Source of the DNA: Eubacteriales bacterium
GTDB taxonomy: Bacteria; Bacillota; Clostridia; Oscillospirales; CAG-272
Length of the DNA: 64,000 bases
Reading direction: 5' to 3'
NCBI GenBank assembly: GCA_045531965.1
Contig: JAZSFA010000097.1
Coordinates: 7,935-71,934, forward strand
Shown: positions 6,915-41,631 of the stretch, in pieces
Layout of the letters: each line of letters opens with the position of its first letter
Position numbering within the stretch: the first letter of the stretch is position 1
The notes under the pieces: generated by a model
Databases searched by the model: none
The model's input: only the letters and a program-made list of their open reading frames with translations
What the model was told of the DNA's origin: nothing
Program-made: the position numbers and the translations under genes

Positions 6915-9900
6915 TCAAGCCGTGAGACCGGTCTTGTACGCCTCGGCGGACTTGCCGTAAGTGTACAAAGCGTTAGCCAATGCAGCCATCTTTTCGTTTT
7001 GGCTGTCCTTCATGGCAAAGACGTAGGACTTAACGCTATAGGTGAGGGTTTGGACAAGTGTGCCGTTTTCGTACAGCTCGAAGGTATAAACGGCATCAAA
7101 GTCCGTGGCATAAATGGCATCAGTCATGTAGATATTTCCCTCTTGGGTGAAATCCACAGTCTGATCGCCGCTCTTGACCACCAGCGTAACGTTTTCTGCA
7201 TCGGTGACCTTGACGTAGATCTTGTTGTTGTAGTCGAACCACACGCCCACGGAGGTAAAACCAACGGTCTGGCTTGTGCTCTGAGTGATCGTCATACCGC
7301 TCTCGGTAGGCGTAGCAGTAGAGGCTGTCAAAATACCTTCCGCACTATTGACAAGGGCATCTGCTTTGTAGTTCGTGTAGGTCTGTGCCGCCGCGCCGTA
7401 GTGGAGCATATCGCTGACCAGCTGCTTCAATTCATCCGTGCTTGTTTCGTCTGTCAGCAGAGACTCTGCATACGCCTTGATACTGTAGCCCGTCTTCTCT
7501 GCCAGCGTCTCGCCGTTCAGCTTGAGGACCGCATCAATGGTGTCGCCCATGGTCTGAGGAGGCAACTGGTTGAAGGTAAAGACGTAGATCTTCTTTTCGG
7601 CATCGAACAGCGTGCCCTTGACCTCGGCGGTCTTGCCGTTGGACATGGTGAAGTACATCACGGCATCCTTGTAGTCGTCGCTCATGGAGACATAGTAGTT
7701 CATGGCAAGGTCAGTACCGACGGTGAGCGTAGCACCCATGATCTCGGCGTGACTCGAAGCCTTGATGACCACGTCGCCGCCGGTGATTTCGGTTGCGTAA
7801 TCGTCGGGAACGATCATCTCCTCGCCCTGCCAGTAGGCCGCGCCCTCGCCAAGGATCTCATGGAGGGTGATGCTATAATTGACACTGATACCGTCGGGGA
7901 AAGTGGCACCCACGCCATTTTCGTCCGTCGTCAGGGTGATGGTGGAAGAACTGCTGTAGAGATCATTGTAATCGCCGCTGATCGAGCCACCGCTGATGGT
8001 CACCAGGCTACTGCTTCCGGCACGCACAGCGTAGCGGTCGCCGCTGAAGGTGCCGCCGCTGATGGTCACGGTGCTGTTATAAGCATACACACCGTAATAA
8101 CCGCTGATGTTGCCACCGCTGATGGTTAAGTTACTGTTAGTCGCATATACGCCGTCATCACCGTTGACGGTGCCACCGCTGATGATCACGGAGCCTCCCA
8201 AAGCGTACACGCCGTAATAACCACTGATATTGCCGTCGGCAATCGTCAGCTTGCCATTAAAGATTATGATGCCTGAATTGTTGCCTGTGATCTTACTGCT
8301 CTCGCCGAGGCCTCGGATGGTAACGTCGACGGAAGATCCGCTGATATACACGGTACCCATACTGGCAATGGTACTGCTGATCTCATGGCCGTTCAGGTCA
8401 ATGGTAAACACGCCGGAATAGATGGTCAGATAGCTGTTGCCCAGAGCAACGTCCTTTTGGAGGGTCACCACGGCCTCGTCGTCAGCGGTGCAAGATCTCG
8501 CCACCCGAATGGCATCGTCTATGGAGGTGTACGCGCCGACGATCTCGCCGTTCTTGCTGACCGTCGCCACTGCGTCGGAAACGATGACACCGCAGGGGCA
8601 GTAGCCGTTATCGTCCAAATGCTCCTCGGCCTCGTTCAACGTCATGCCGCAGGTAGAGCAGACGACCTTGTGATACGTCTCGTCCACGTAGGTATATTCC
8701 CTCTCACCAACGTGGCTGTAACGGCTTGTGTACTGCGCCGTGTAAGTCGTATCACCGTAGACGTAATCGATCTCCTGATCCCAGCCTGTGAAGGTGTAGC
8801 TGATACATCCGTCTGCTTCCTTACCGGTATTGCCCGTGAAGTAAGGCCAATCGCCATACTCATAGGTTTCCTCAAATCGGCTGTCGCCTACGATCCAGGT
8901 AACCGTGAAGGTCTTGTAATTCCAGTAGGCGTAGAAGTTCAGATCGGAGGTCACAGCCGTGCCGTCCTCCAGAGGATTGCCGTACCGATCGTGCCAGCCG
9001 CCCCAGACGTACATATCGCCGGGAGAATCGGGAATGGCCAGGTCGGCAATACGCAGGATGCTGCCGTAGGGATATTCCACCTCCCACAGGATGTCGTAGC
9101 TGTAACAGAATGTCACGACGAAGGTTTCCACGTCGCCGCAAACGCAAACGTGATCCACATTGTTGTAGTCGTGTTCTCTGTATGCGTAATCCAGCAGGTC
9201 ACAGCAGGCATAGTCCACGCTGTGGGTGTCGCCGTGATTGGTGTAGACGGGGGCGGAGTGACCGTACGCGCTGATCCAGACGGCATTGGGATCCGTGATT
9301 TCCACGGCGCCCTCCGCATCCTCGAACAATCGGTCGCAGCCCGAGCAAGCATAATGGGGGATGTTGCCGTAAGTGGCGCAGGTGGCTTCTCTTGCGGGGA
9401 TCAGAACCAAAGAATGAACGTGGGACTCGGCAAACAGGACCTTCAGTTCCAGAGCCTCGGAGTAGGTCTTGCCATCCTCCAGATGCACGATCCTGTATGT
9501 TTTTTCCTCCGCACGGACGGGCAGTTCAAAAATCGTGTAATCCTCGCACTTCCAGGGATCCTCGTCTGTGTCCATGGCAGAATAACCGATCTGTCCCGAG
9601 CCGATGCCGTTCATCATGAGCTGGCTGCCTTCAAGAAGTGTCAGAACGCCGCTCTCGGAAATCTGGACGGAGCCGTAAGTTCCGTCAGGATCGATCACCG
9701 TGACTGTGGGCATATTGGACTGATTCGTTTCGTGTTGGTTGAGAGAGTTGATGCGCTTGGTTTCGACGGTGACCTTCACAGAGGCATCGGAATCGTCAGG
9801 GCAGATCTCAATTACCGTAAAGCCGATATCCTTGCCCTCCACTTCGAAGGTGAAATAACCGTTACGGTCGGTGAATACGATCTCATTCAAAAGGTCAGCG

Positions 9901-12900
9901 TGTTTTTCATCGGAAGAAAGAATGACTCTTCTTCCGCCTACAGGGTTGCCGAAGGCATCCAGGAGTCTGCCTTCCAGGGTCACCTTCTCTGTCGGCTTCA
10001 CCTCAACGTTGGTGTAGGTCAGTTTGATTTCGCTGACATACTGCTTGACGGTCAGCTCCTCGGAGGTGTAATCCATACCGAGAGCTATGCCCGCGTAATT
10101 CTTCACGGAGCCGTCAACCGTCACCTGCGCGGTACCGACCAGCGGCTGACCGTCCTGACGGGACACCATCAGCTTGCGGCCGTAGTACACGCTCGCGTCG
10201 GTAGCGCTGACTTCCCTATCGATAAAGGTCAGCACGCAAGGTACGCTTTCGCCGTCAACCGTCAGGGTCACGGCACCGCCGAAGCCTGCAATATCCATGT
10301 ACTGACTGAACTCTACCAGCACACCTTCCGTATAACCGTTCGCGGTAGCAACGGTAGGTGTCACGGTGGTCACCAGACCGATGTTCACATTCAGCTGGGG
10401 AGGAGGCACGGGGAGCCAGCCATCCACCGCGTTGGCATCCCGGGTAGAATCTGCCGTCAGGTAGCCCTCCTTCTCGGCGACGACCTTCCAGTTACCGGGA
10501 GGTGTCAGCCAGGAGTAGTAGCCGCCTGCTTCGGTGACGATGGTACTGACCTGACCGAAGCTCTCCGCATCCCACAGGACGGCGTTGCCGTTTTCATCCT
10601 TGTAGTAGATGCTGACGGTGGCACCCTCCACGCGGTTGGAAAGCACGGCCTCGTAGATGAAGCCCGCAGGGTCGATCAAGGGATCGGAGCATTCCATTTC
10701 GTGGGATACCATTTGTTTCGCGGCCTCCGTCGCCAGATCAAAGGCAAGATCTCCTATGTCAAAGATCATTTCATCATCGGAGTCATCGGTCTCGACTTTC
10801 GAAGAATCATTCTCGGATTCCTCGGTTTCAACTCTCGAAGGATCATCTGCCCAATTCTTGCCGTCTTCACGGCCGGTAGGATACAGCGGGAAGTATCGCC
10901 AGTTTTTCTCCACCATTTCATCCCACAGCTTCAAGGCTTTTTCGGCAGAAACATAGCGAATACCGTTGCGTTTCCAGACGCCGTCACCGTTGTCACCCTT
11001 GGTGCTCAGATCCCGCTTCAGCTCTTCATACTTTTCGATATTCTCCTTCAATTTGCTGAAGCTGGCATTGAAGCGGTTGATATTGCCCTTGGAGAAAATA
11101 CCGGTATAGCTGTCATTGTTGAAGCCAAACAGACCTACTGCGTCAATCGTCGCGTCCGCAAAGAGCCTTATGGGGTCCGCAAATTTTGCAGGCACCAAGC
11201 TGAGCAGCTTTGTCAGCATATGCGCAGATTCCAGGCGCAGCTCATTGTCGTACTGATCACACAGGGTTCTCAGCTCGGTCATGGCAACGTATATGCTCTC
11301 TCTCACATCTCTCAGAGCGTTAAGATAACGCGGGCTCTCTCTGTGATAATAAACCTTGGAGTTTTTGAAATACTCGTCAAGATCACCGGCGAAACCTGCA
11401 AAGGATCCCAAATACTCACGCAGGGTCCACCGTTGATAGAACGACTCAATGTCCACTTCACCGGTTTCGGGGTTGTTTTCAAACATCCAAGCCTCCATCC
11501 AAAGGAACGCCTGCCCCTCATAAATACGGTTGAAGACATCTTCACTTCCGTAAACATCCACAACCAGGCTATGAATATGGAATGTATCCATCATGCTGGA
11601 TTGATACAGCGGGTAAAGATTGAAAAACTCCATATTCGCTTCGTCGTAATCGACGGTAGCCCAGTAGATCCGGTCGATCTCCGCATACATTCTACCCAGC
11701 TCCAGCATTTGGTTTACGTAATTGCCGTAAGCCTTTTGCATCTTATCCAGCGCCTTCGCCGTGTCCGATATAGCACTCGTCGAATCCAGCAAACCGCTGA
11801 TATAGGAAAGGATACCGGTCACTTTGCTATACATCTTTCCGCCCGTGGTTTTTTTAAGCCCATCCCATTCATTCAGGAGGTCGCTTCTGAACTTCATCGT
11901 GCGATAGATCATCGTTTGAGAAGCATTTGAGGAACCACTTGAAGCTATCGACAGAGCCAAGGCCTCGCTGTGTTTCATGCCCCTGATGTTGGACTCAACC
12001 GATGCACCAACAATTTTGGTTGGATTATTTGAGTCATAGACGTAGGAGACCTTGATCAATCCTTTATCTTGGGCGGATGTCAACACATCCACATTTCTCT
12101 CATAGACCTGATTATCCAAATAGAGATTTGCGGCTTTACTCGTATCCACATTGGCACGCAACGTGACGTCAACGAGCATATCGGCTCTATGATCGTGAAT
12201 TTTATAGCCCTTCATCACGGTTTCTGCCAAGCCTTTGTCAATCAAGGTGCCTGCTATTTTAGGCGAATCCTTGGCCAGCACTTTGGTAATATAGTCCAGA
12301 CCGTTCTGTGTCAGGAAGCCGTCGCCTTCCTCCGTCAATTCCACGCTGGGATTGCCGCTCTCATCGTAGTACATATTGATCAGGCGATCCTTGTCCCAGT
12401 CCCAATCAAACGGTATTTCATCCTTCAGGAAAGACAGGCCTTCTCCGATCAGATTGCCAAGGCCGTTGAGCGCAGGATTCTTTTTGCCAAGCAGGTAATC
12501 AAAAATGGAATCCTCATAGTATTCACGCAGATTGTCGGCAACCCACTTAGCCATACCTTCCAGACCATGGTAGATGATATTCTCCATGAATGCCTGATTG
12601 TCTTGATAATTCTCATAGGTAGAATCGATCAGATCGGCAACGTACTGATCGTGAATCCCATCCACGTACTTACTCAGAGAATCACCGCTCGCTTTGCTTC
12701 CGTTCGCCGCCATGGTCCGCATGGTCAAGGTCTGCATATTCTGTGCAGGGACATAGGAGGTGAACACGTCCATCCACGCATCTGTGTCGTAGGACAAATG
12801 ATAGTTGGCGCTGAAATCGTAGACCTCAAATCCGCCGTCCGTGTTTGCCATAAACACACCGTTTTCCTCGCCGTAGACGGGGATCTCCATAAAGCCTCTC

Positions 12901-15900
12901 TGCCGCAGGGATGCGGCGGTAACGCTTTCATCGATGGATCCCGTCTTCGTGTTAGACATCAGGGCAAGGTAATCTTCCTCGCTCATGTCCTTCGGGCTGA
13001 ATCCGAAGACCTCCTCAAAGGCGTTGTTCATCATGAACTCGAAATCTTGAGCATACTGGTAGTCGCTGATGATATCCGCCTGCATCTCTGCAGGGTAATA
13101 CTGGAACAGCGGGTCGGTCTTCACAGGATCCATCAGAGCATAGATGGTGTTTTCCAAGCCGTCTTCAAAGCAGAACATATTCTGGAAGGGCGTCCGATCC
13201 TGCTCCTTCATTCTTTCTGCCATGGCTTCCACCTGGCCGGGCATCAGGGTGATGCCCACGGCGTCCGCCGCGGTCTCCCACTCCACACCCATGTGCGTGG
13301 GCAGTTGCATCACGGTCAGCAGGGTGGCAGGGTCATACGCCACGTTTCGGATGGTCTTGGCGGTGACGTAACATCCGCTGTCTTCATCGTATTCGGTCCA
13401 CAGATACTCTTCCCTCTCGCTGCCATATATATCCGTATAACGGATGACGATGGCTGCATCACGGGCATAGCCTGCGTTATTGTTGTCGAAGGCCGCGCGG
13501 AAGGTCTCGTAGATGTCGTAGCGCTTCCCTTCCGTGCTGTCCAAGGCGGAGCGCAGGACGATGTTCTTTCGCTCACCGGTTTGGAAGTTGACAGAAATGA
13601 CGTTATCGGGGTCATAGGAGGTGGGGAATACCACTTCCCCCGTCTCGGCGTCGCGGATCACGATCTCCCCCTCGATCTTCACGGGGATCGCCAGATCCTC
13701 GTTACACTCCACGCTGACAGAATCGGTGGTAAACTCAATACCCGTGTTGGCGATGCGCACCACGGCGTAAACCTCATATTCCCACCAGAGCCACTTGAAG
13801 GGCGCGTCGTAGCGCAGAACCGCAAGGCCGGTATAGTTGGTGATGCCTTGTGCCACCAGCACACCGTCGGCGTACAGATCCACCTCGGAGCCCGCGGGAG
13901 CGGTCACCATGGCGTTAATGCCGGTTTTGTCCGAAATGGTGGGTGCGTGGCTGACACTCACCATACGCGAGAGCATCTCTTTATCCAGCATACTGACAGA
14001 TCCTGCGGCGGCATAGTAGCGGGAAGCCACGCCGTCCACGGTCGCGTCGGTAACAATGGTGGCGGTGCAGTACTGATCCCTGATCTGGTCAAAGGAAACG
14101 ACATCCTCCTTGTAACGGAGATAGACCACGAAGTTGAGTCTGCCTGCCCTTTGGGTCAGATCATTGATGGAATATTCATAGTACGTGGTCAGTCCGTCAT
14201 CCGAAAGATAACGGTCGGTGTAGGTCATGTGGGTACCGAAAGCCTGCTCTACCTGCATGATATGGAACAGCTCCAGATTGGAAGGAATGCTCAATAGCAG
14301 GGTGGTATTGCGAAGCTGGAAGTCGGTATCCAGCACCATGTCAAAGGTCAGCTCGGTGTAGTACGGCCAGAAGGTATATTCATAGGGACTGAGCCTAAGC
14401 TCCCGCTTCGTCACCATCGGCTCCTCTTTGATGAGGAAGCTGGCATCGGGGGCCAAGGGAGTTTCCACGTCCAGCATCTGGTAGCAAGGCGCCTTCAGGG
14501 TCACGTTGGTTCTGTAATAGTCCTCCCCTGCCGTCCATCCGCAGGCGGTGAACTGTGACAGCTTTTCCGCGGCGTTGAGATAGCGGTTCTGCTCGGACAC
14601 GGTCACCGTGTAGGTGCCGTCCGCAAAGCGACGAATGAGCAGCTCTCCGCTTTCCACGATGTCGATGGAAACGCGGTTGCCGGCGGCGTTGTATACCTGA
14701 ACGATGGCGCGGCCGCTCTCGCTGTCCTCGGGAAGGACGGGGCGGATATACATGGCGCCGTATCGGTTGAGAGTGCCCTCGGTGTCACCGTAATTTTCCG
14801 AGTCACCGGGGTTCAGCACGGCGGTAAAGCCGTACATTTCCAGAGACGGATCGGGCGTGACCGTCACGGTCAGCTCATCGGTCAGCTCAAAGAATTCTGC
14901 GTAATTATTGATGATCACGTAGGGGAACTGGAGGGTGTAGTCCTCACAAATCGTACCCTTGGTGACGTTTCTGATCTCCACGGAGATGCCATCGAAGCTC
15001 TCCAGCATCTCGGTCTCCTCATCCCCATCGGGAAGGATATCGTAAATGCTGAATTTTGCGCTAAAGGTGCCCGAAACAGGCAGCTTTTCCATTTCAACAG
15101 CGAGCTTGTAAGGCGTATTCGCATCCATGGCCGCTTGAATATCCTCGGCAGCCACCGAGCCGGTGTATTTATAGTAACCATCGCACAGGACGTACACCAG
15201 CAGGTTGGCAGAGGGTGTTGCCTGCAGGGTGATCTTACCGTCCACGATCTCGGTTTCCAGCTCTCGGAGCAGGTCACTCTGCGTCTGAAGGATGGAAACG
15301 CTGACGCCGGGATCATCCTTCACGCCCTCGGGCAGCTCGATCTCCACAGCCCCCTTCTCTCGCTTCATCAGATTGACGACGACGACCTGACCGTCCATGG
15401 TGGACTTCAATTCAAATTCACCGGAATCGTAGTCCTCATAATCAAAGGCGTAGGCTTCATCCAGGGTGACGGTGAAGCGGTAGCGGAAGGTGTCAGAGAC
15501 CATGGCGAAGCCATCCAGCTTTGCGCCTGTGGTCAGTACGTTGTCCTCCAGCCAGTTGATGTACCAGTCGATCTGCACCTTGTCGGTGATATCCTCGTCC
15601 CCTGCCATGACCTTCACGCCGAAGGAGGAAAGCACCGTCATGGCCTTCAGGTATTCGTTCAGCTCGACGAACTCCACAGCACCGTAGCCGTTTTCTACGC
15701 AAAGCTCGGTCTGCTCCTTGAAGAATTCCCAATATGCCTTCTGGCCATCATAGTCGCTGGTAAAGGGGATGCAGGTGAATGTGTCACCGGGCTTATAAAT
15801 GCTACTGTAGGCCGTATTGCTGTAATCCTCGCCGCTTTCAAACACGCCGTAACGGTAATATGCCGTGGGCACGTAGCCATCCAGCTTGGCTTGGTTATAG

Positions 15901-18900
15901 TTTTTCAGAGAGTAATTATAGATACCATCTTCGAAGATCTCCATATCGAAGCCGTTTTCCCTGATCATCCAGCCAACGGAGCTGGGCAGGAACACTTCTG
16001 CCAGCTTGGGGCAGTACTCGGCAAAGGAATAGACAGGCATGAACGCGCCTTCTCTTTCCAAAAATACGATCCGCTCAAGCTCGGGACAATCGTAGAAGCA
16101 GGTGTCTCCATAGCCCGTATGCGTACCCGAAAGTTCATTGTAAACGGGCGACGTTCCGATGCTCGTCACCTTGGCGGGCACGATGATGGAGGTGATGGAG
16201 GTCTTTTCAAAGGCGCGGCTGCCAATACTCACCAACGTTTCCGGCAGGTCAAAGGCAGTAATGCTCTCACAGCCCGAGAAGGCCTTTTCACCGATGTGTT
16301 TCAAAATGGAATCCTTACCGCCAAAGGTGATGAGGGTCATAGAACTGCAGCCCTCAAAGGCACTCTTGCGGATATCCTCCGTCTGATAGGAGACGTGGAA
16401 ATACTTGAGAGAAGGACAATTCAAGAAGCAGTTGGAGCCGATCCACTCGCCGCTGTAAACGTCCACTTCCTCCAGGGCAGTGCAGTTTGCAAAGGTACTG
16501 CCCCACAGATGCTGAACGTCGGTGGAGGCACAGGTCACCTTTTTGATCACCGTATTGTCGGTAAAGGCGGGGATGAAGCGCAGGCTGGAGGGCAGCACGA
16601 TCTCCTCGATGGCAGTGCCGCGGATAAAGTGGTCTCCGATGCTATTTACGCTTTCGGGGATCGTAAGTTCCGTAACCAAAACACAGCCGTCAAAGGCATA
16701 GTCGCCAATGTAGCCCAGCTTGCTGTTCAGAGTAATGGACGTCACCTCTGCGCAATCCTGGAATGCACAATTGCCCACATAGGTTACGTTTTCACCCAGC
16801 TCGATCTTCGCCAACTTCGTGCCGCGGAAGGAGAACTTCTCTACGCTGATCAGCGAATCGGGAAGATCTGCGATCTCCAGAGAAATACAGTCGCAGAAGG
16901 CACTCTCTCCGATGATCTCCAGCGAGTCGGGCAAGACGATGCCGTTCAGCGACGTACATCCGTTGAACGCCCGTCCGTCGATCCGTTCCAGCTCGGCGGT
17001 GATCTGCACGTCGGTCAGGGATTCGCAACACTCAAAGGCGGCCTCACGGATGCGGGTAATACTGCCGGGCAGTACCACGCTTTCCAGATAGTAACAATCT
17101 TGACAAACACCCTTGCCGAGATAGGTCACGGACTCGGGGAACACAATGGACTCGATATCGGAGTATTGGAAGGCATAGGGACCCACGTAGGACAGGATGC
17201 CCTCTCCCGCGGGATCCAGGTTGACTTGGGTAATGTAGGTTTCGGCGATGGTGCCGCCCATGAGCTTGGTCACCTTTTTGGGGACGGTATACTCGGTCAG
17301 GTAGGTACCGCGGAAGGCGTCCGCGCCGATATAGCTGACGTTTTCACCGAAGGTGACGGTCTCCAACGACGAATAACAGAACGCGCCGCTGCCGATGAAG
17401 GTCACGCTGTCGGGGATCTCAACGGATGTCAGCGGGGTGTTGGAGAACGCATATTCTCCGATGGACGTCAATCGGTCGTTGAAGCGGATAGCGGCAATAT
17501 TAGTTTGGGTAAAGGCATAGCCGTCCAGCTCCAGAAGACCTGCGGGCAGGACAAGCTCACCCTCAAGACCTGCGCTCGCGAAGGCGGAGTTACCGATATA
17601 GGAAACGCTCTCGGGCAGGAAATCCAGGGAAGTGATACCGGAGCAGCCCGCGAAGGCATAGCCGTTCACCCGTTGCAGACCGTCTCGGATCTGCACGTTG
17701 ACAAGACTTGGGCAGCCTTCAAAAACACTCGTTTCCAGCTCAGGTAACAGGGTCTCGATGATCACTTCCTGCAAGGAATAGCAGCCGTAGAAGGCATATG
17801 CCCCCAGCTCTGTGACAGAGGCTGGGATCACCACCCGTTCCACAGCGGAGCATCCCTTGAAGGCACGGTCACCGATGGATGTCACCGACGGAGGGATAAC
17901 CAGCTCTGTCAGCGCGGAGCAGCCGTCAAAAGCACCATCACCGATCTTTGTCAAGGTGGAAGGCAGCACGATCTTCTCCAGATTTTCACAGCCATAGAAT
18001 GCCTCGGCGCCGATCTCGGTCACGCCCTCGGGGATCACGATCACACGCAGCGCAGAGTTTTCAAACAGGCCTTCGGGAATGACGGTCATGCCTGCGGGAA
18101 TGATATAAGTTTCAATACTCGTTCTTTCAAAGAAGTACTCCCCGGGGATAAAGCCCTGCGGCAGATCCAGCTCCGTGACGTTCCACAGTATGCCCGGATG
18201 TCCCAAGGTCTTCAGGCTCTCGGGGAAAACCAGAGTCTTGCCATCGTAAGCGAAATTGTAGTCAATAACGATATCCGATCCTTGATATCGATCCCAGTAT
18301 TCCGTGACGATCCGACCGCCGTCAAAGACCTCCAGCCCTTCGGGAAGCTCCATTTTTTCGCGCACAAAGAAGGACTTTACGGGGGCGAATACCTTCAGCG
18401 TAGAGGGCAGGACTACCTCGTCGGCGGTCACGGCGCATTCCAGTCCGCCCTCACCGATGATCTCCAAGCCCTCGGGCAGGATCAAGGTACCCACTTCGAT
18501 CTCGGCATCCATTTCATTCAGCAGTTCAATGGTCTTGAGCGACTGGATCTCAAGCACGGAAACCTGCGGAATATACAGAGTCTCCACGCCTTCGGGGATC
18601 ACCAGCTTTTCAATGCTGCCCGGCAGACCTTCGATATGCTTGATCCCATCGCCCATCTCAAGGGTGGTGACGCAGGACGGCACCGCGGTCGGTTCCAGCG
18701 TCTCCACCGTATCCGGCAGGATCAGGGTGGTCATATAGGGGCAGCGGTCATATTCAGCGGTACCGTAGGTTTCCGTACCAAAAGTCTTGCCCGCGATCGT
18801 CTTGACGGTGATGCCGTTGATGGTTTTGGGAATGGTCACCACTTCGTCATTGGAAAACACGGAGTACAGCGTGCCGTCGCTTGTGATCAGATAGCGGTTT

Positions 18901-20837
18901 TCGGTCAGCGCCGTCGGATCAATGACGTTGTAAGTAAAGATCTCGGAGGTATAGGAGAAATCCCCCGCCGAAACCACGCAGAACACGTAGTATTCTCCCT
19001 CCGTTTTGGGACTCGTCTGGAAATAGCTTCGGTTGGAGGAATGCAGCGTAGCACCGTCATAGCTCTTGACCGTATTGGTATACCAGTTCACCTTCAGCTT
19101 GGAAGAAGAATAGGAAGAACCCGTGGTATACAGGACGCCGTTATGATACAGCGCCATGGGTGCCAGAGAGAAAATATTGGTGCTGGCGGTGCTTTTCGCC
19201 ACGTCCTTGTAAAGGATCTTCTCTCCCAAAATCTCATCATACTGTCCGCTTCCCGTATAGACCAACAGATCCTCGGGATAGACGTTCAGCACGGTGCTGC
19301 CTCCGCCGCCGAAATAGGTCTTACCGTTGGGCGCAGTAGCAGAATACGACACACGGTATTCCGTACGCGGGCGGCGGACATCCGCAGACACGGGAACGGT
19401 AAAGGTGGTTCCCTGATCCGAAATAATGAATTGCAGATTTCTCCCATCAATATATTCATCATAGAAGAGGGTACAGTCGATCACCGTGTCGTCCGCCAGC
19501 GTAAAGACGTTGGAGGTCACGGTTGCCCCCGGCTCCACATAGGTATCGTAGCCAAAAACCTCAAAGGAGCTGATGGGATCATACGTCCAGCTGCGGTCAG
19601 GTCCGACCTCACCGCTTTCCCCACCGAACACGGGCAGAATGGGGGTGTTCAGATAATAGTCCTTCCCATCGACCTGCCAGAATACCTGGCAGGAGATATA
19701 GGTGGTACGCTCCCACAGTTCTTCCGCGGTGATCTGCTCCTCAGACTGCGAATTCAGATATTCAAGGTAATAGGAATTTTCGATGTCCTCCACCGTCAGC
19801 ACAGGCTCTGTGGTGGTAAAAGGGCCGTCCCACATGGAATCGTCAAAATTTCCTTGCAAAACCCACTCGGGCACGGCAGCAGACAGATTCCACTCATAGA
19901 TCACCTGTGTACCCTCAGGCAGGCGGTCGGTATTGAAATCCAGCGTCAGGGTATCCTGCGCCATGCTTCCGTAGCCGGGGCTGCCTTCAAAGAAGGCATT
20001 CGTGCCAATGGCTATATAGCAGGGGTCGCTCAGATATCCGCCTGCATAGTATCTGACCCAGAATCCGCCGGTACTGGAGTAGTGATTGGTTTGCACATCA
20101 CCGGCAAATTTCAAAATATCGTCGGCGGAAAGGCGTATGGTTGCCCGGTTGCCCACAAATTCCATATCCACATCCGGATTGTCTTCCAGCAGATTGTGGG
20201 AATAATGGCCGCCGGTTGACGCGATCCAGTGTGCGCCCACTCCGTCTATTGCCGTCATGACCGCGGGAGACAGCTCCACCGTCAGCTCCAGCTCGTTGGG
20301 CAGATCCGCTTCGGTGGGATAGTAATAATAGGCAGGCAGATTTTTTAGGAACATGGGCGTGGTCTCGAACTGCTTCAGATCCTCAGCTCTGATCAGACCC
20401 AAAAATTCTTCCCTCGCAAAAAACGTATAGTAAATGTTATACGCCTGATCTCCAAAGAATTCTTCCGTTGCAGACACCGCGCTGTAGCCTGCTACCGCGC
20501 CTGCTTTTACGTACTTTCGCAGGTAGCCCAGCAGCTCCAGCAGCAGCTCGTCGGACATACTACGGCAATACAGGGCAAAGTTATTGTACTGCCAGAACTC
20601 GCCCCGCTCGTCCAAATCCTCCAGTACGGAGAAAAAAAGCTCATATTCGGTGGCAAAGCCCGCTTCGTCCGCCACCTCCAAAAGCTCTGACCGATGCTTG
20701 ATCAGCTCTTCCTCGGTGGCGCTTTCGGGATCGGGCAAGGCTTCCACCGCAGCGGCAAAGGCCGAAAGCGGAAGCGCCGTCAGTAGCATAGCGACGACCA
20801 ACAAAATGGCAATCATTCTCTTTCTTAGGTTCAACAT
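6915..20837 (-). CDS. 4640-aa secreted multidomain surface protein (BspA-type LRR_5 repeats, Ig-like domains, helical core, DPAG-containing domain, Cys/His repeats, InlB-B-like repeats, beta-helix repeats, C-terminal beta/helical domain)
   Basis: Sec signal MLNLRKRMIAILLVVAMLLTALPLSAFA; many IPxSVTxIGxxAFxGC repeats (about 18900-15950); DPAGFIYEAVLSNRVEG at about 10670; AGGAGG RBS. Confidence 0.9.
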   Translation of the reverse strand: MLNLRKRMIAILLVVAMLLTALPLSAFAAAVEALPDPESATEEELIKHRSELLEVADEAGFATEYELFFSVLEDLDERGEFWQYNNFALYCRSMSDELLLELLGYLRKYVKAGAVAGYSAVSATEEFFGDQAYNIYYTFFAREEFLGLIRAEDLKQFETTPMFLKNLPAYYYYPTEADLPNELELTVELSPAVMTAIDGVGAHWIASTGGHYSHNLLEDNPDVDMEFVGNRATIRLSADDILKFAGDVQTNHYSSTGGFWVRYYAGGYLSDPCYIAIGTNAFFEGSPGYGSMAQDTLTLDFNTDRLPEGTQVIYEWNLSAAVPEWVLQGNFDDSMWDGPFTTTEPVLTVEDIENSYYLEYLNSQSEEQITAEELWERTTYISCQVFWQVDGKDYYLNTPILPVFGGESGEVGPDRSWTYDPISSFEVFGYDTYVEPGATVTSNVFTLADDTVIDCTLFYDEYIDGRNLQFIISDQGTTFTVPVSADVRRPRTEYRVSYSATAPNGKTYFGGGGSTVLNVYPEDLLVYTGSGQYDEILGEKILYKDVAKSTASTNIFSLAPMALYHNGVLYTTGSSYSSSKLKVNWYTNTVKSYDGATLHSSNRSYFQTSPKTEGEYYVFCVVSAGDFSYTSEIFTYNVIDPTALTENRYLITSDGTLYSVFSNDEVVTIPKTINGITVKTIAGKTFGTETYGTAEYDRCPYMTTLILPDTVETLEPTAVPSCVTTLEMGDGIKHIEGLPGSIEKLVIPEGVETLYIPQVSVLEIQSLKTIELLNEMDAEIEVGTLILPEGLEIIGEGGLECAVTADEVVLPSTLKVFAPVKSFFVREKMELPEGLEVFDGGRIVTEYWDRYQGSDIVIDYNFAYDGKTLVFPESLKTLGHPGILWNVTELDLPQGFIPGEYFFERTSIETYIIPAGMTVIPEGLFENSALRVIVIPEGVTEIGAEAFYGCENLEKIVLPSTLTKIGDGAFDGCSALTELVIPPSVTSIGDRAFKGCSAVERVVIPASVTELGAYAFYGCYSLQEVIIETLLPELETSVFEGCPSLVNVQIRDGLQRVNGYAFAGCSGITSLDFLPESVSYIGNSAFASAGLEGELVLPAGLLELDGYAFTQTNIAAIRFNDRLTSIGEYAFSNTPLTSVEIPDSVTFIGSGAFCYSSLETVTFGENVSYIGADAFRGTYLTEYTVPKKVTKLMGGTIAETYITQVNLDPAGEGILSYVGPYAFQYSDIESIVFPESVTYLGKGVCQDCYYLESVVLPGSITRIREAAFECCESLTDVQITAELERIDGRAFNGCTSLNGIVLPDSLEIIGESAFCDCISLEIADLPDSLISVEKFSFRGTKLAKIELGENVTYVGNCAFQDCAEVTSITLNSKLGYIGDYAFDGCVLVTELTIPESVNSIGDHFIRGTAIEEIVLPSSLRFIPAFTDNTVIKKVTCASTDVQHLWGSTFANCTALEEVDVYSGEWIGSNCFLNCPSLKYFHVSYQTEDIRKSAFEGCSSMTLITFGGKDSILKHIGEKAFSGCESITAFDLPETLVSIGSRAFEKTSITSIIVPAKVTSIGTSPVYNELSGTHTGYGDTCFYDCPELERIVFLEREGAFMPVYSFAEYCPKLAEVFLPSSVGWMIRENGFDMEIFEDGIYNYSLKNYNQAKLDGYVPTAYYRYGVFESGEDYSNTAYSSIYKPGDTFTCIPFTSDYDGQKAYWEFFKEQTELCVENGYGAVEFVELNEYLKAMTVLSSFGVKVMAGDEDITDKVQIDWYINWLEDNVLTTGAKLDGFAMVSDTFRYRFTVTLDEAYAFDYEDYDSGEFELKSTMDGQVVVVNLMKREKGAVEIELPEGVKDDPGVSVSILQTQSDLLRELETEIVDGKITLQATPSANLLVYVLCDGYYKYTGSVAAEDIQAAMDANTPYKLAVEMEKLPVSGTFSAKFSIYDILPDGDEETEMLESFDGISVEIRNVTKGTICEDYTLQFPYVIINNYAEFFELTDELTVTVTPDPSLEMYGFTAVLNPGDSENYGDTEGTLNRYGAMYIRPVLPEDSESGRAIVQVYNAAGNRVSIDIVESGELLIRRFADGTYTVTVSEQNRYLNAAEKLSQFTACGWTAGEDYYRTNVTLKAPCYQMLDVETPLAPDASFLIKEEPMVTKRELRLSPYEYTFWPYYTELTFDMVLDTDFQLRNTTLLLSIPSNLELFHIMQVEQAFGTHMTYTDRYLSDDGLTTYYEYSINDLTQRAGRLNFVVYLRYKEDVVSFDQIRDQYCTATIVTDATVDGVASRYYAAAGSVSMLDKEMLSRMVSVSHAPTISDKTGINAMVTAPAGSEVDLYADGVLVAQGITNYTGLAVLRYDAPFKWLWWEYEVYAVVRIANTGIEFTTDSVSVECNEDLAIPVKIEGEIVIRDAETGEVVFPTSYDPDNVISVNFQTGERKNIVLRSALDSTEGKRYDIYETFRAAFDNNNAGYARDAAIVIRYTDIYGSEREEYLWTEYDEDSGCYVTAKTIRNVAYDPATLLTVMQLPTHMGVEWETAADAVGITLMPGQVEAMAERMKEQDRTPFQNMFCFEDGLENTIYALMDPVKTDPLFQYYPAEMQADIISDYQYAQDFEFMMNNAFEEVFGFSPKDMSEEDYLALMSNTKTGSIDESVTAASLRQRGFMEIPVYGEENGVFMANTDGGFEVYDFSANYHLSYDTDAWMDVFTSYVPAQNMQTLTMRTMAANGSKASGDSLSKYVDGIHDQYVADLIDSTYENYQDNQAFMENIIYHGLEGMAKWVADNLREYYEDSIFDYLLGKKNPALNGLGNLIGEGLSFLKDEIPFDWDWDKDRLINMYYDESGNPSVELTEEGDGFLTQNGLDYITKVLAKDSPKIAGTLIDKGLAETVMKGYKIHDHRADMLVDVTLRANVDTSKAANLYLDNQVYERNVDVLTSAQDKGLIKVSYVYDSNNPTKIVGASVESNIRGMKHSEALALSIASSGSSNASQTMIYRTMKFRSDLLNEWDGLKKTTGGKMYSKVTGILSYISGLLDSTSAISDTAKALDKMQKAYGNYVNQMLELGRMYAEIDRIYWATVDYDEANMEFFNLYPLYQSSMMDTFHIHSLVVDVYGSEDVFNRIYEGQAFLWMEAWMFENNPETGEVDIESFYQRWTLREYLGSFAGFAGDLDEYFKNSKVYYHRESPRYLNALRDVRESIYVAMTELRTLCDQYDNELRLESAHMLTKLLSLVPAKFADPIRLFADATIDAVGLFGFNNDSYTGIFSKGNINRFNASFSKLKENIEKYEELKRDLSTKGDNGDGVWKRNGIRYVSAEKALKLWDEMVEKNWRYFPLYPTGREDGKNWADDPSRVETEESENDSSKVETDDSDDEMIFDIGDLAFDLATEAAKQMVSHEMECSDPLIDPAGFIYEAVLSNRVEGATVSIYYKDENGNAVLWDAESFGQVSTIVTEAGGYYSWLTPPGNWKVVAEKEGYLTADSTRDANAVDGWLPVPPPQLNVNIGLVTTVTPTVATANGYTEGVLVEFSQYMDIAGFGGAVTLTVDGESVPCVLTFIDREVSATDASVYYGRKLMVSRQDGQPLVGTAQVTVDGSVKNYAGIALGMDYTSEELTVKQYVSEIKLTYTNVEVKPTEKVTLEGRLLDAFGNPVGGRRVILSSDEKHADLLNEIVFTDRNGYFTFEVEGKDIGFTVIEICPDDSDASVKVTVETKRINSLNQHETNQSNMPTVTVIDPDGTYGSVQISESGVLTLLEGSQLMMNGIGSGQIGYSAMDTDEDPWKCEDYTIFELPVRAEEKTYRIVHLEDGKTYSEALELKVLFAESHVHSLVLIPAREATCATYGNIPHYACSGCDRLFEDAEGAVEITDPNAVWISAYGHSAPVYTNHGDTHSVDYACCDLLDYAYREHDYNNVDHVCVCGDVETFVVTFCYSYDILWEVEYPYGSILRIADLAIPDSPGDMYVWGGWHDRYGNPLEDGTAVTSDLNFYAYWNYKTFTVTWIVGDSRFEETYEYGDWPYFTGNTGKEADGCISYTFTGWDQEIDYVYGDTTYTAQYTSRYSHVGEREYTYVDETYHKVVCSTCGMTLNEAEEHLDDNGYCPCGVIVSDAVATVSKNGEIVGAYTSIDDAIRVARSCTADDEAVVTLQKDVALGNSYLTIYSGVFTIDLNGHEISSTIASMGTVYISGSSVDVTIRGLGESSKITGNNSGIIIFNGKLTIADGNISGYYGVYALGGSVIISGGTVNGDDGVYATNSNLTISGGNISGYYGVYAYNSTVTISGGTFSGDRYAVRAGSSSLVTISGGSISGDYNDLYSSSSTITLTTDENGVGATFPDGISVNYSITLHEILGEGAAYWQGEEMIVPDDYATEITGGDVVIKASSHAEIMGATLTVGTDLAMNYYVSMSDDYKDAVMYFTMSNGKTAEVKGTLFDAEKKIYVFTFNQLPPQTMGDTIDAVLKLNGETLAEKTGYSIKAYAESLLTDETSTDELKQLVSDMLHYGAAAQTYTNYKADALVNSAEGILTASTATPTESGMTITQSTSQTVGFTSVGVWFDYNNKIYVKVTDAENVTLVVKSGDQTVDFTQEGNIYMTDAIYATDFDAVYTFELYENGTLVQTLTYSVKSYVFAMKDSQNEKMAALANALYTYGKSAEAYKTGLTA
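7975..8280 (-). repeat. About five 60-nt (20-aa) tandem repeats xGVYAxxxxxTISGGxISG
   Basis: ccgctgat...gccaccgctgatggt units start at 8041, 8101, 8161, 8221 (and about 7975). Confidence 0.8.
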
Positions 20838-20840
20838 TTT

Positions 20841-20987
20841 TTACCTCCTGTGTATCACACGGATACCGCCCTTGCAGTATCCTCGGTGCGTGGTTTCAAA
20901 ACGTAGCATCGTCCTTGTTCGTGATATACTCGTTTCCCTTGATATGGGAATAGCAAGTTTATCGAACCAAACTTGCTTTTTTATCAT
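20841..20987 (-). CDS. Putative 48-aa leader ORF MIKKQVWFDKLAIPISRETSISRTRTMLRFETTHRGYCKGGIRVIHRR
   Basis: GGAGGTG RBS; its last codons AGG AGG TAA form the RBS of the giant gene. Confidence 0.55.
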   Translation of the reverse strand: MIKKQVWFDKLAIPISRETSISRTRTMLRFETTHRGYCKGGIRVIHRR

Positions 20988-21037
20988 ATCTAACACCTCC
21001 AGTTTACATAGAGTTGATTGTTAAACTTTATAAGATA

Positions 21038-21108
21038 ATTATATCATTTATAAATAGTAAGGGTGTATAGGGGTGTTTTTCGGGTGTGTTCAGGGTGTTT
21101 TTCGAGTA
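21038..21108 (-). promoter_or_regulatory. Extended -10 promoter with phased ACACCC array in place of -35
   Basis: TGaTATAAT (21046-21038); plus-strand GGGTG at 21061, 21071, 21082, 21093 (degenerate 21104); proximal copy exactly 17 bp from the -10. Confidence 0.75.
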
Positions 21109-21136
21109 TATCGATATCCAAGGAAAGAAAAACGCC

Positions 21137-21174
21137 AAAAAAGGGCAGAATTTCAATGCTTCTGCCCTTCTTTT
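21137..21174 (-). terminator. Rho-independent terminator
   Basis: AAGGGCAGAA...TTCTGCCCTT stem flanked by A/T tracts, after the GH99-like pair. Confidence 0.75.
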
Positions 21175-21205
21175 GTTATGAATTTTTCGTCTCTAGGTTT
21201 GTGTA

Positions 21206-22192: not shown

Positions 22193-22207
22193 GGCATTTT
22201 CTCCTTA

Positions 22208-32894: not shown

Positions 32895-32903
32895 TGTTAT
32901 AAT
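32895..32903 (+). promoter_or_regulatory. Extended -10 element of the membrane LuxR gene
   Basis: TGtTATAAT; TTGTTT 17 bp upstream. Confidence 0.5.
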
Positions 32904-32934: not shown

Positions 32935-33894
32935 ATGGTAATCGCATATATAGTTATGTTCATTTTGGCTCTGCTATTGCCCCTTGTATATTTTCTCTTC
33001 GTGCAAAAAACGCAAAATGAACCTTGGCTATTAGTCCTATACATATGTGTTTGCATCGCCACTTTGGGTTGGTTACTTCTTTCCATTTCCCCCAGCGTAA
33101 ATTGTGCCCTGTGGGCTAATAAGATCGCATATTTAGGTCAGGTTTTCATCCCCCTTTGTATGTTCATGATCATCTCCAAGCTCTGCGGCTTCCGCTACAG
33201 TCGCTCCTTGGTCTTCTCCCTGGTGGGTGTCTCGGTTCTGATGTTTGCCATGGTCATGACCACGGGTTATCTGGATTGGTACTACGCCAAAGTCACCCTT
33301 GAATATGCCGATGGCGCTGCCAAGCTGGTCAAAGAATACGGTTTTCTCCATCCTTTATATCTATTCTACATTCTCGGATATTTTGCAGCCATGATCACGG
33401 TGACCGCCATTTCTCTGCGCAGAAACAAGGAAGGATCTCCAAAGCTTGCGGGGCTGATGCTGGCGGTCGTTCTCGGCAACATCGGTATTTGGATCATTGA
33501 GAAATTTATTCCCTTGAATTTTGAATTTTTGTCAGTTTCTTACTTAATGAGCGAGACGGTTTTCTTCTTCGTCTATCTTCTTCTGCAAGATTATATTCAC
33601 GTAAGAGATATTCCACCGCCTGTCATTGTCAAGGAAAAAGTACCTATCATTGTAGTGGATACCATCCCGAGAGCCGAAAAGATCAAAGCGATCCTTGAAA
33701 GAGTCCCGCAAGGAACCACCCTTTCCGCCCGCCAAATGGACGTGTTGGAGGGGATTCTTGACGGAAAGAGTCGCAAAGAAATTGCGGCAGATCTTCACCT
33801 TTCCGAAAACACGATAAAGATGCATACTTCCTCGCTCTACAGATTGCTTGACGTATCCAGTCGCGAGGAAATTTACGCGATCTTCAAAACCTAA
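32935..33894 (+). CDS. Membrane-embedded one-component regulator: about 7 TM helices plus LuxR HTH
   Basis: About seven hydrophobic segments (HisKA_7TM-like NKIAYLG); LSARQMDVLEGILDGKSRKEIAADLHLSENTIKMH; AGGAGG RBS before ATG 32935. Confidence 0.88.
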   Translation: MVIAYIVMFILALLLPLVYFLFVQKTQNEPWLLVLYICVCIATLGWLLLSISPSVNCALWANKIAYLGQVFIPLCMFMIISKLCGFRYSRSLVFSLVGVSVLMFAMVMTTGYLDWYYAKVTLEYADGAAKLVKEYGFLHPLYLFYILGYFAAMITVTAISLRRNKEGSPKLAGLMLAVVLGNIGIWIIEKFIPLNFEFLSVSYLMSETVFFFVYLLLQDYIHVRDIPPPVIVKEKVPIIVVDTIPRAEKIKAILERVPQGTTLSARQMDVLEGILDGKSRKEIAADLHLSENTIKMHTSSLYRLLDVSSREEIYAIFKT

Positions 33895-33913: not shown

Positions 33914-33943
33914 AAGGCGGTAGCCATGGCTACCGCCTTTTTT
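33914..33943 (+). terminator. Rho-independent terminator
   Basis: AAGGCGGTAGCCATGGCTACCGCCTTTTTT. Confidence 0.85.
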
Positions 33944-33961: not shown

Positions 33962-34037
33962 TACCCCCAAAACACCCTTAAACACCCCCAAAGCACCCTT
34001 GGCGGGTGTATTTTTTTATACTTATATATGATATATT
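33962..34037 (+). promoter_or_regulatory. Promoter with phased CACCC array
   Basis: (T/C)ACCC at 33962, 33973, 33983, 33994, inverted GGGTG at 34004; TATACT at 34017 or TGaTATATT at 34029-34037. Confidence 0.7.
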
Positions 34038-34150: not shown

Positions 34151-37100
34151 ATGAAAACAAATGTCAAGTCAAAGCTATTGTCCATCCTGCTTGTACTCAT
34201 CATGGTACTTGCCTCGGTTCCCTTTTCCGCTCTGCCCGCATGGGCAGATGAGCCCGAGATCACCGAGGTCGGTACTTGGACCGAACTACTCAACGCAGTC
34301 AACTCAGACAAGACACACATTAAGCTCCAAAAAAATATTGAAGACATCGTTCCTGACGATGAGCTTCCCACAAAGCACCGTCTTGTCTTTAACGGCGGCA
34401 AAGATTACGTCCTTGATCTGAATGGCTATGAACTGAAGGTGCTCAACCATATCAATGAGTTTTACAGCGGTGAGTTTTCCATGATCGAAGTGTCGGGCAG
34501 TTCAAAGCTTGAGATCAAGGCCGGTAGCCTTATTTTTGATAACTATTCTACAAAAGCCAACCGTAAAGCCAAGGGTGTTGTTGCTGTCAAAGATGACTCT
34601 TCCCTTATTGCCATCGACGTAAATATGCAGAACAGATACACAGGCACGGTGGTTTATGCGAATTCCTCTGCCAAGGTTACCCTTGACGGCGGCGAGTACG
34701 CTGTTCAAAACGGATTTGCAATATATCTTGAAAATCAGGCTTCTCTGACCCTTGACGGACCCTATATCCATACAACTATGGGTGATGGCACCCCTACTCA
34801 ATACGTTGACGGCTACGGTGCCCTTTACTCCGAGAGTAAAGGGGCGCTAGTCATCAATGACGCTTTCTTCAAATCGGGTGTACAGGTAAGCAGCTCGCAG
34901 ATTGACGCGTTTTCTGTTGCTACCCACGAGGTGACGGTCAACGGACAGGTGTTGACCGAGGATATATTCGTAGGAACGAACTTCGAGGCGAAGCAGCAGA
35001 ATAAGGCATATTATTGGTATTCATGGACAGGATATTCTCTGACTAAAACCGATAACTCTTCTTTTGCCAATCCCGTAAGAGTGATTTCCTATGAGAAGAA
35101 ATATCCCGTAACGGTTGAATCAGGTGTTGCGATGGTTGGCGGTAAGCCCGTAACCGAGGCAAGCTACGGTCAGGAGGTCACGGTCGTAGCGAATACCCCG
35201 GAGGAAGGCATGGAATTTGTGCGTTGGGACACCAGCGGAGTTAAGCTTGCTGACGATTACAGCGCATCAACCTCCTTTACGATGGTGCCCGCGCCCGTTA
35301 CCTTGGCGGCATATTACGGTAAGGAAGCGGTCAAGGCGGTGAGCATTACCGTTGATGATCTTATTCCCGGACAAAGTGTAAATGATACCAAGATTACTTT
35401 GGAAAACGGCGTGATCCTCCAAGCCGTTGAATGGCGCGAGGAATCAGCTTTGAAAGGCGATTATGCTGTTTTCAGAGCAGGTAAAAGCTATACCGTAAAT
35501 ATGCTTGTCTATCCCCCCGAGGGAAACAAGTTTAGTGACACCGTAACAGCCACGGTCAACGGCAAAAGCGCGACGGTGAACGCAAACTCCCAATACGCGT
35601 ATATCGAGTACACCTTTGAGGCGACGCCTTCGGTGGGATTTAGCATTGTGTATGACACCAACAATTCTCAACTCGGTGTCGGCGGTAATCTCCTGCTCGA
35701 TACTGCATTGATGGCCTCCCAAAGCGCGGAATTCAAATCAGCCTTGGATGCGGGTAAGGTTACCTATCAATGGTACAGAAACGGCGAGGCCATTGAGGGT
35801 GCGACGGATGCTGTTTACAACTTTACCGCAGAGGATGTGGCGGGCATATTTTACGTAGCTGTGACAGCAGACGGCAAGAGCAATTACGGACATAACGTGA
35901 CTTGCAGCGGGGATCTGTATCAGGTCTATTTGAATGCCAGTGATATTATTGCGGGCGAAAAGGTGCCTCAGATCACTGTGGCTACCCCCGGAGTTTCTAT
36001 TGATACAGAGAGCATGGCTATCTATGAGATACTCGGGAATAATTCTTACGGAAATCCCCAAAGCTTGGCAAACTCGATTTTGATTCCCGGTAAAAGCTAC
36101 TGCTTGGTCGGTAAGATCATAGAGCAGGATGGCGTAACTGTTGCTAACAATGCCAATGTTTACGTAAACGGTGAACTGATGAAAGACAAGCTCGACACCG
36201 GACGCTTCTTCTATGAATTCACAGTTCCCGAGGCAGACTTCCCCGTATATTACAAGGCAAACGGCGAGACAGGTATTGGCGTGACGTTGACGGTGGATAT
36301 TGAGAAGATGTGTAACGAAAACGGCACTTTTAAGCACGCTGTTGAAGCTGCAAATCCCACCTATCAGACGGTATTTTATCAGTGGTACAAGAACGGCGAG
36401 GCTATCAAGGGTGCGACAGATCCCTCCTACACCGTAAAAGCTGTTGACAGAGACAGCTACATCCACTGTCAGGTCACCCTTGTGGACGGAAAATACGGCA
36501 TTGGTGAGCAGTATGCGATCTCAAACGTTATAACTGTCATCAACGTTAATATGCCTCTACCTAAGGACGGCGAATCGAGAATAACCACCGGAATTTCTGC
36601 TGACGGCGTTGTCATGAGCGGCATTATGTGGTGGCCGAAGGAAACGGGGGCTACCATGCAAGGAGATGCTAAGTACGTCGAAGGTGAAGTTTATGAGTAT
36701 CTAATCAGCTTTGAAGCTAAAGACGGTCTTTCATTGGATTTTACGGGAGAGATGACTGTTGCTTACGTTAACGGCACAAAAATCACTCCCGCGGGCTCCG
36801 GTAATGGAGCAGCACGTTACACAGGCGAGGTTACCGCCATCCATAAGCATCAATACAGCGACACGGTATGGGATCATGACGAATACGCACACTGGCAGCC
36901 CTGTATCGTTCCGGGCTGTCCCAATCCCAGCGAAGAATGGATGATGTACACCGAGCATAAGGGCGGCACCGCAACCTGCCAGACCAAGGGTGCATGTGCC
37001 CTTTGCGGCTACGAATATTACGCGGATCACGATTTTTCCGTTCCCGATTACCAATACGTGGACGATATGAAATGTGCCAACTTCTGTGAGAATTGTGACG

Positions 37101-37837: not shown

Positions 37838-37852
37838 TATATGTCGAGCATC

Positions 37853-37876
37853 CCCCTTTCTCTTCGGGGAAAGGGG
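37853..37876 (+). other. Intercistronic UUCG-tetraloop hairpin without U-tract
   Basis: CCCCTTTCTC-TTCG-GGGAAAGGGG just before the next RBS. Confidence 0.6.
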
Positions 37877-37893
37877 CGTAAAGGAGAAAAAAC

Positions 37894-41625: not shown

Positions 41626-41631
41626 ACAGTT

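Follow-up and report, generated by a model that had tools for sequence, protein, structure and literature searches.

The window, that is the whole stretch of 64,000 nt analysed here, carries two surface-protein loci, each preceded by a short array of ACACCC-type words repeated about once per helical turn and by an extended -10 element (Table 1). Site 1 lies on the minus strand in front of a single giant gene. Site 2 lies on the plus strand, between the gene of a putative regulator that combines a seven-helix membrane domain with a LuxR-type helix-turn-helix (HTH), hereafter 7TM-LuxR, and an operon of three genes.

Table 1. Coordinates of the features discussed in the text (window positions)
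Feature	Positions	Strand	Remarks
Giant gene	6915..20837	minus	4640 aa, signal peptide, BspA-type LRR_5 repeats; predicted target of site 1
Remaining leader of giant gene	20838..20904	minus	hairpin GGATACTG/CGGTATCC just 5' of ribosome-binding site
Ribosome-binding site (GGAGGTG) and 5' stump of small gene	20905..21000	minus	from alignment A3; stump 20905-20987
Extended -10 of site 1, TGATATAAT	21038..21046	minus	TATAAT 21043-21038, TG 21046-21045
Site 1 array	21061..21109	minus	four exact ACACCC and one decayed copy, spaced 11/11/11/10 bp
Upstream terminator, hairpin and T run	21137..21168	minus	read from the sequence; absent from the scan's list
7TM-LuxR regulator gene	32935..33894	plus	HisKA_7TM and GerE domains; stop codon 22 nt before terminator
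Terminator of regulator gene, hairpin and T run	33916..33943	plus	read from the sequence; absent from the scan's list
Site 2 array	33962..34009	plus	direct half-sites at 33963 (degenerate), 33973, 33983 and 33994 (CACCC), then an inverted copy
Extended -10 of site 2, TGATATATT	34029..34037	plus	TATATT 34032-34037, TG 34029-34030
Operon, predicted target of site 2	34151..45738	plus	three genes: 1228, 1243 and 1368 aa; terminator after 45738

An earlier note on this DNA had described four exact ACACCC copies and a degenerate one at intervals of 10, 11, 11 and 11 bp, and this observation is confirmed on the minus strand. The exact copies occupy 21098-21093, 21087-21082, 21076-21071 and 21066-21061 (spacing 11, 11 and 10 bp), and the fifth, ATACTC (4/6 match, 21109-21104), lies 11 bp further upstream. 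We regard the latter as a decayed copy, since an exact ACACCC stands at the same position in the orthologous promoter of G001, a genome of the same genus. All copies at site 1 are direct, and the inverted half-site found at site 2 is absent. The proximal copy does lie, as had been stated, 17 nt (21060-21044) from a perfect TGnTATAAT, and a consensus scan found no sigma-70 type -35 element paired with this -10. Both the -10 and the array are kept in G001 and in a further relative, G006, the array with 6-7 copies, but in these two orthologous promoters the distance is 22 nt. The 17-nt spacing is thus peculiar to this genome, 5 nt (half a turn) short of G001, G006 and the family rule given below. 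Sitting half a turn closer to its -10, site 1 may therefore act differently or poorly in this genome. It may simply be a mis-phased and weakened site; alternatively, the hexamer TATCTT (21037-21032, 4/6 match), 23 nt away, may be used instead, or the short gap may reflect an assembly error in an A+T run.

On its upstream side, the site 1 promoter region is bounded by a terminator (21168-21137) that closes a GH99-like gene (21206-22192). It belongs to a pair of neighbours with GH99-like regions (21206-24562, minus strand; 328 and 784 aa), which is duplicated in G001 too. On its downstream side, about 190 nt separate the promoter from the ATG of the giant gene (20837). The leader (20838-21030, minus strand) has a predicted fold of -53.6 kcal/mol (z -4.45), far more stable than shuffled sequences. 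The hairpin just before the ribosome-binding site is retained in G001 and G006 with one-sided changes, these three sequences being too few to judge a riboregulator, and an Rfam search of 20700-21300 gave just three sub-threshold chance matches, over the upstream terminator. In the one metatranscriptome run, 8% of sampled words were present; its contigs, 90-99% alike, come from relatives, and none extends over 20814-21215.

The same motif and phasing had also been reported 13 kb away, in front of the other surface-protein locus, and this is confirmed at site 2. Read on the plus strand, its words are ACCCC (33963-33967), ACACCC (at 33972 and 33982) and GCACCC (33993). An inverted GGGTGT (34004-34009, ACACCC on the minus strand), missed in the earlier note, occupies the next in-phase position, and the array thus ends in the palindrome CACCC-TTGGC-GGGTG, an inverted half-site pair of the NarL kind. 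This inverted half-site is located 22 nt upstream of TATATT. All three proteins of the downstream operon have a signal peptide and a C-terminal membrane anchor. In the 1228-aa and 1243-aa proteins the C-terminus comprises an acidic Pro/Thr/Glu stalk, the membrane anchor and a basic tail; about 85 C-terminal residues are near identical between the two (37650-37837 and 41440-41625), which suggests a recent duplication or gene conversion inside the operon.

The ACACCC hexamer alone is not rare, with 43 occurrences in the window against 29.8 +/- 5.5 expected. In contrast, three CACCC separated by gaps of 4-6 nt occur three times in the window (two overlapping at site 1, one at site 2) and never in 100 shuffles. 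The check proposed in the earlier note, a search of the whole genome (3,474,264 bp, 168 contigs) for at least three CACCC at 10-11 bp, returned two arrays, sites 1 and 2, both of which precede surface-protein genes. Same-strand CACCC pairs at 10-11 bp number 17 in the genome; 12 of them lie outside the two arrays and are isolated. Lone CACCC-N3-6-GGGTG palindromes are not enriched in the genome (28, against 33 for a scrambled control) and were rejected as extra sites, being mostly terminator stems or coding sequence. Chance or low complexity as the origin of the arrays is ruled out by the shuffles, by the genome scan and by two results described below, the motif-blind scan of the family and the linkage to the regulator gene. 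We also considered plasmid iterons or the end of a mobile element and rejected them, given that no replication or transposition gene is adjacent and that the distance from array to -10 is fixed.

The gene just upstream of site 2 encodes a protein with two recognizable domains: a GerE/LuxR HTH (PF00196; 55.9 bits for a cut-off of 23.5, residues 273-326) and a HisKA_7TM domain (PF16927; 43.7 bits for a cut-off of 28.6, and 44.9 bits in a six-frame search). The genome encodes no other HisKA_7TM protein, and eight GerE proteins in all exceed the cut-off. There is no NCBIfam model for the whole protein, and its sequence matches in the PDB are ChrA, GerE, DesR, VraR and NarL. The listed start of the gene is at 32902, where the ATG overlaps TGTTATAAT, a -10-like element. 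Because of this overlap, and because the N-termini of relatives match 32935 (MVIAY...), the latter is the likelier start; the recognition helix and its Met307 are nevertheless numbered here from 32902. An AF2 model (68-row alignment, pLDDT 83.4) shows seven transmembrane helices, the loop from helix 4 to helix 5 carrying a beta-hairpin (128-146), then a disordered linker (241-254) and a four-helix HTH (276-329) with its recognition helix at 302-316. From the distribution of basic loops, the N-terminus would lie outside the cell and the HTH inside. The best Foldseek matches of the model are class C GPCR seven-helix bundles (calcium-sensing receptor, E 9.3e-4, TM 0.39; mGlu5 and GABA-B are also among the matches), a weak likeness that may amount to a generic seven-helix bundle (32935-33620). 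No CACCC array precedes the regulator gene itself and, as the earlier note rightly said, no regulator is adjacent to site 1.

A combined pattern and tblastn scan, with one genome per species, gave at least 573 relatives, of which the best 80 were taken; by their record titles, these come from Clostridia, Oscillospiraceae and Eubacteriales MAGs, largely from the guts of ruminants and other animals. In 72 of the 80 loci the sequence continues for at least 200 bp beyond the stop codon, and CACCC was sought there within 400 bp. The palindrome CACCC-N3-6-GGGTG was present behind the regulator gene in 49 of the 72, at least three phased CACCC in 51, and one or the other in 61, counts that overstate independence, since the 80 loci share ancestry and were picked by top score from 573. 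Neither the palindrome nor phased CACCC was found in the 400 bp upstream of the gene (0/80). In a motif-blind version of the scan, any 5-mer with at least two G/C that is repeated at least three times at 10, 11 or 20-22 bp was accepted; such a word was found downstream in 52/72 loci, in the 300 bp upstream in 1/80 and inside the gene in 0/80. Forty-nine of these 52 words are windows on [A/T]CACCC, and the other three (AACAC, CCCCT and ATACC) touch it or belong to a CTATACC repeat of the clade with Trp in the recognition helix. The 11 loci that lack the CACCC design comprise five with another repeat, two with two copies only, one with an insertion sequence and three with nothing.

The geometry of these arrays is strict. 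Successive CACCC are spaced by 10, 11, 21, 22, 32 or 33 bp in 124 of 133 cases, and never by 12-18 or 23-30 bp. With the -10 chosen by a simple score, the last half-site ends 22 or 23 nt upstream of the best -10 in 34/41 palindromic arrays and 22, 33 or 34 nt upstream of it in 13/14 direct-only arrays, that is in 47 of 55 arrays together; the best -10 is TG-extended in 42 of the 55. The suggestion that the array replaces the -35 of the giant-gene promoter therefore has to be narrowed: it fits the 17 nt of this genome, but not the 22 nt of G001 and G006, nor the 22, 23, 33 or 34 nt of the 47 family arrays. As a rule, the predicted operator would abut the -35 region rather than replace it.

Protein and array also covary. 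Among 81 proteins, 68 were usable after dropping those with an internal stop (5), without the helix motif (2) or with a short flank (6). In the recognition helix, SENTxK is followed by Met in 26 of them, by Thr in 38 and by Trp in the other 4. At loci with at least two CACCC copies, Met goes with A-CACCC in 19/19 cases and Thr with T-CACCC in 33/33, while five Trp loci (the four above and L078, otherwise dropped) have a phased CTAYACY repeat with its own inverted copy. On a quick tree built from the transmembrane domain only, five of five independent pairs on supported branches co-change; the sign test gives p 0.0625, which is the floor for five pairs, and nine pairs are available when all branches are used. 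The specificity residue sits in a K-x-H stretch, its equivalence to NarL being based on the shared motif; in NarL, Lys188, Val189 and Lys192 touch bases, according to published work (PMC10853779). The LuxR-type gene that the earlier note had named (32935-33894) is thus the best candidate binder: arrays follow its relatives, and the motif follows the recognition helix in all 52 cases.

A similar association is seen at a closer scale. A homolog of the regulator is present in 7 of the 29 genomes of the genus, and intergenic arrays occur in five of these seven. The strict array pattern matches in seven genomes of the genus and a backwards control pattern in five, but the matches are of two kinds. 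Those of G000 (this genome), G001, G006 and G016 lie in A+T-rich DNA between genes (33-43% GC), whereas those of G001:C4, G010, G013 and G015:C334 fall within open frames of 225-670 aa with 61-70% GC. G010 and G013 are the only regulator-less genomes with pattern matches (open frames of 670 and 225 aa, respectively). Across the order, 11 of 401 genomes matched the strict pattern, mostly in G+C-rich, coding-like sequence, and only G244:C173 and G336:C12 resemble TCACCC arrays.

In G001, G006 and G016, the regulator gene lies directly 5' of an array. Each of the three has a second array as well, which precedes the ortholog of the giant gene in the first two and a different surface-protein gene in G016. 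Orthologs of the giant gene are confined to 3 of the 29 genomes (G000, G001 and G006). Each genome uses one variant at both of its arrays, ACACCC in G000, G001 and G006 and TCACCC in G016. The two TCACCC arrays of G016 (L032:4906-4960 and L033:1576-1630) are almost identical, promoters included, and are located on short contigs of 7.0 and 4.9 kb; they may represent a recent duplication or one locus assembled twice. Three further cases were seen in the genus. In G015 (regulator 50% identical), TCACCC copies follow the gene at intervals of 10, 21, 10 and 22 bp, and in G007 (34% identical) the array was not found. In G003 (C70, L038 ~2060-2300), the position held by the array in relatives, about 170 nt beyond the regulator gene, is where an IS200/IS605-type transposase gene starts, and the operator has apparently been lost or displaced.

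The origin of site 1 can be traced by comparing the two kinds of promoter. Alignment A3 sets the giant-gene promoters of three genomes (G000, G001 and G006) against the cassettes located behind the regulator gene in G001 and G006: the sequences agree over the array, TGnTATAAT, the ribosome site GGAGGTG and roughly the first 85 nt of a small gene, and then diverge. This pattern of match followed by divergence indicates that site 1 is a copied operator-promoter cassette which carried along the stump of its first gene. The open frame at 20987-20841 (48 codons) is probably not a real gene. There is no intact small gene in G000, which has lost it at its own site 2 and kept the stump in front of the giant gene. 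Elsewhere, the first gene after the array, examined at 54 loci, encodes a 138-152-aa protein in 27 cases and a signal-peptide protein in 26, the remaining one being a spurious call. The small gene encodes a conserved cytoplasmic protein (e.g. L041:4182-4634, and 26 further loci in alignment A5) without Pfam or NCBIfam family. Its AF2 model (pLDDT 79) resembles a PsbP/Mog1/Tsi3-type sandwich, a likeness at the fold level only (VIA Z 9.3 to BT_1490 and 8.8 to Tsi3; Foldseek best E 4.5e-3), and the protein may modulate the regulator.

In all ten other genomes tested (five per motif type), a single array is present, beside the regulator gene. The two-locus arrangement is therefore a derived state, special to a small clade. 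The earlier proposal that both loci form one regulon is supported by comparison for this genome, in which the only two arrays both precede surface-protein genes and share a motif that has co-changed in G016, but it does not extend to the family in general.

Judging from these comparisons, the one 7TM-LuxR protein encoded in this genome most likely has both arrays as its operators, and we consider that it probably acts as an activator. It would be a one-component regulator, with seven membrane helices, a small outer beta-hairpin, a flexible link of about 40 residues and a cytoplasmic GerE-type HTH, each HTH reading one [A/T]CACCC half-site. As the half-sites recur once per helical turn, the bound domains would all lie on one face of the DNA. 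An inverted promoter-proximal pair, where present, would bind a dimer with its centre near -44, assuming a transcription start some 7 nt downstream of the -10, and the bound protein would most likely aid RNA polymerase at an extended -10 promoter that has no usable -35. In this way, the regulator would switch on the neighbouring operon, whose three products are anchored surface proteins, and the copied cassette would have added the 4640-aa BspA-LRR protein, 13 kb away, to its targets. The full reading, in which the arrays are 7TM-LuxR operators, the protein helps the polymerase and the two surface-protein loci are switched together, is in our opinion a likely one, drawn as it is from comparative sequence analysis. 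We infer in addition that the protein may oligomerise along the array, and the strict once-per-turn spacing would fit a protein that reaches the DNA from the membrane side only.

It is tempting to go further and to imagine rows or clusters of receptor-like 7TM proteins in the membrane that can approach DNA from a single side, an operator with one site per turn (10/11/21/22 bp, with nothing in between) as a signature of membrane tethering, a code in which residue 307 sets the motif (A-CACCC if it is Met, T-CACCC if Thr, CTAYACY if Trp) and regulons that grow by cassette copying in front of new surface-protein genes, as at the giant gene. Regulator and operator would then be a compact, re-targetable device leading from signal to promoter, widespread in uncultured gut Clostridia. 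We regard this wider picture as speculative and rather doubtful in its entirety.

The same 7TM-LuxR protein could also be a repressor or silencer, its one-face row, extending up to the -35 region, blocking the polymerase until released by a signal. This follows from the fact that extended -10 promoters can fire without an activator; a strong TG-extended -10, such as that of the 42 arrays mentioned above, can work without a -35, the proximal copy at site 1 sits on the -35 position itself, and NarL-family proteins act both ways. We nevertheless think repression unlikely, because the 47 arrays that follow the distance rule end upstream of the -35 position and never over the -10 or the start, a placement typical of activators, and the only characterised membrane LuxR proteins, the 12-TM family of Eggerthella, are activators (PMC9734109). 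A less probable alternative is that the arrays are bound by another trans-acting factor, either an OmpR/PhoB-type response regulator or another GerE protein, the LuxR gene being merely co-located. Direct 11-bp repeats next to a -10 are indeed reminiscent of Pho boxes, site 1 has direct copies only, and seven further GerE proteins exceed the cut-off in this genome. However, it would then be difficult to understand why the first base of the motif tracks the neighbouring recognition helix without exception, why a third helix type comes with a third motif, and why intergenic arrays in the genus are confined to regulator-bearing genomes, with the single array beside the gene in the ten others.

Two explanations dispense with a dedicated binding protein at one or both sites. 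Between the copies lie A- or T-rich stretches that are themselves helically phased (e.g. AAAAACACCC and TTTTTTCACCC), and such tracts could bend the DNA and act as an UP-like element. This is very improbable, as curvature does not account for a G+C-rich core that never varies, for the inversion of the proximal copy, for the covariation of the motif with a protein residue or for the presence of only one or two sites in a genome. That the palindrome of site 2 is merely a second intrinsic terminator of the regulator gene appears hardly credible. The scan does list GCACCCTTGGCGGGTGT followed by ATTTTTTTAT as terminator-like (6 pairs), but the regulator gene already has a longer hairpin and T run behind its stop codon (33916-33943), most relatives have no T run after the palindrome (as judged by eye), the palindrome lies at a fixed 22-23 nt from the -10, and each arm repeats the word of the direct copies. 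We thus favour the reading of both arrays as operators of the 7TM-LuxR protein.

In gut Clostridia, adhesion and host contact depend on large surface proteins, and very little has been learned about their control in uncultured species. The present analysis puts forward a concrete candidate regulator and its operator in a family whose relatives in public genomes number at least 573, together with a testable rule that relates one helix residue to one operator base. It also offers a clear example of regulon growth through the duplication of a promoter cassette. In the open-access article texts searched, we did not find the 7TM-LuxR family, its phased operator, the rule linking residue and base, or the copying of the cassette. 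The elements of the system, a GerE-type HTH, a class II-like placement and a membrane-bound LuxR protein, are of known kinds.

Pho boxes, bound by PhoB in E. coli and PhoP in B. subtilis, are tandem direct repeats of about 11 bp that replace the -35 in front of a good -10. Site 1 as pictured in the earlier note resembles them, but the repeat at the -35 position (17 nt) is found in this genome and not in G001 or G006. In contrast to Pho boxes, which are bound by response regulators of the OmpR family, the repeat word covaries here with a GerE-type protein, and the usual distance is 22-23 nt instead of 17. ToxR, TcpP and CadC are likewise membrane-held transcription factors with direct repeats about one turn apart (the term TNAAA-N5-TNAAA occurs in ToxR papers). 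They differ from the present regulator by an N-terminal winged-helix domain of the OmpR type, a single membrane helix and a periplasmic sensor; the proteins are unrelated in sequence, and 7TM-LuxR does not belong to that group.

Closer in domain organization are the LuxR proteins of Eggerthella lenta with 10-12 transmembrane helices (DadR, HcdR and CadR), which activate adjacent genes and are, according to the accessible part of PMC9734109, the only characterised membrane LuxR proteins. They share with 7TM-LuxR a membrane-spanning N-terminus, a C-terminal LuxR HTH and a gene located beside the targets, but the regulator described here has seven HisKA_7TM helices and its hosts are Clostridia rather than Coriobacteriia, its predicted targets being surface proteins rather than reductases. 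An operator of the Eggerthella proteins is not described in that part of the paper.

At the level of the operator, a close parallel is with NarL at the E. coli promoters yeaR and ogt. There, a GerE-type HTH binds an inverted pair just upstream of the -35, activating 7-2-7 sites are centred at -43.5 and -44.5 (PMC10853779), and further in-phase sites are possible upstream; the inverted pair described here would be centred at about the same position, given the assumed start. Unlike NarL, 7TM-LuxR has no receiver domain and no phosphorylation, and its input would come from the fused 7TM domain. Its predicted operator also departs from the 7-2-7 arrangement, with an [A/T]CACCC half-site, a gap of 3-6 nt and up to 5-7 direct copies, one per turn of the helix.
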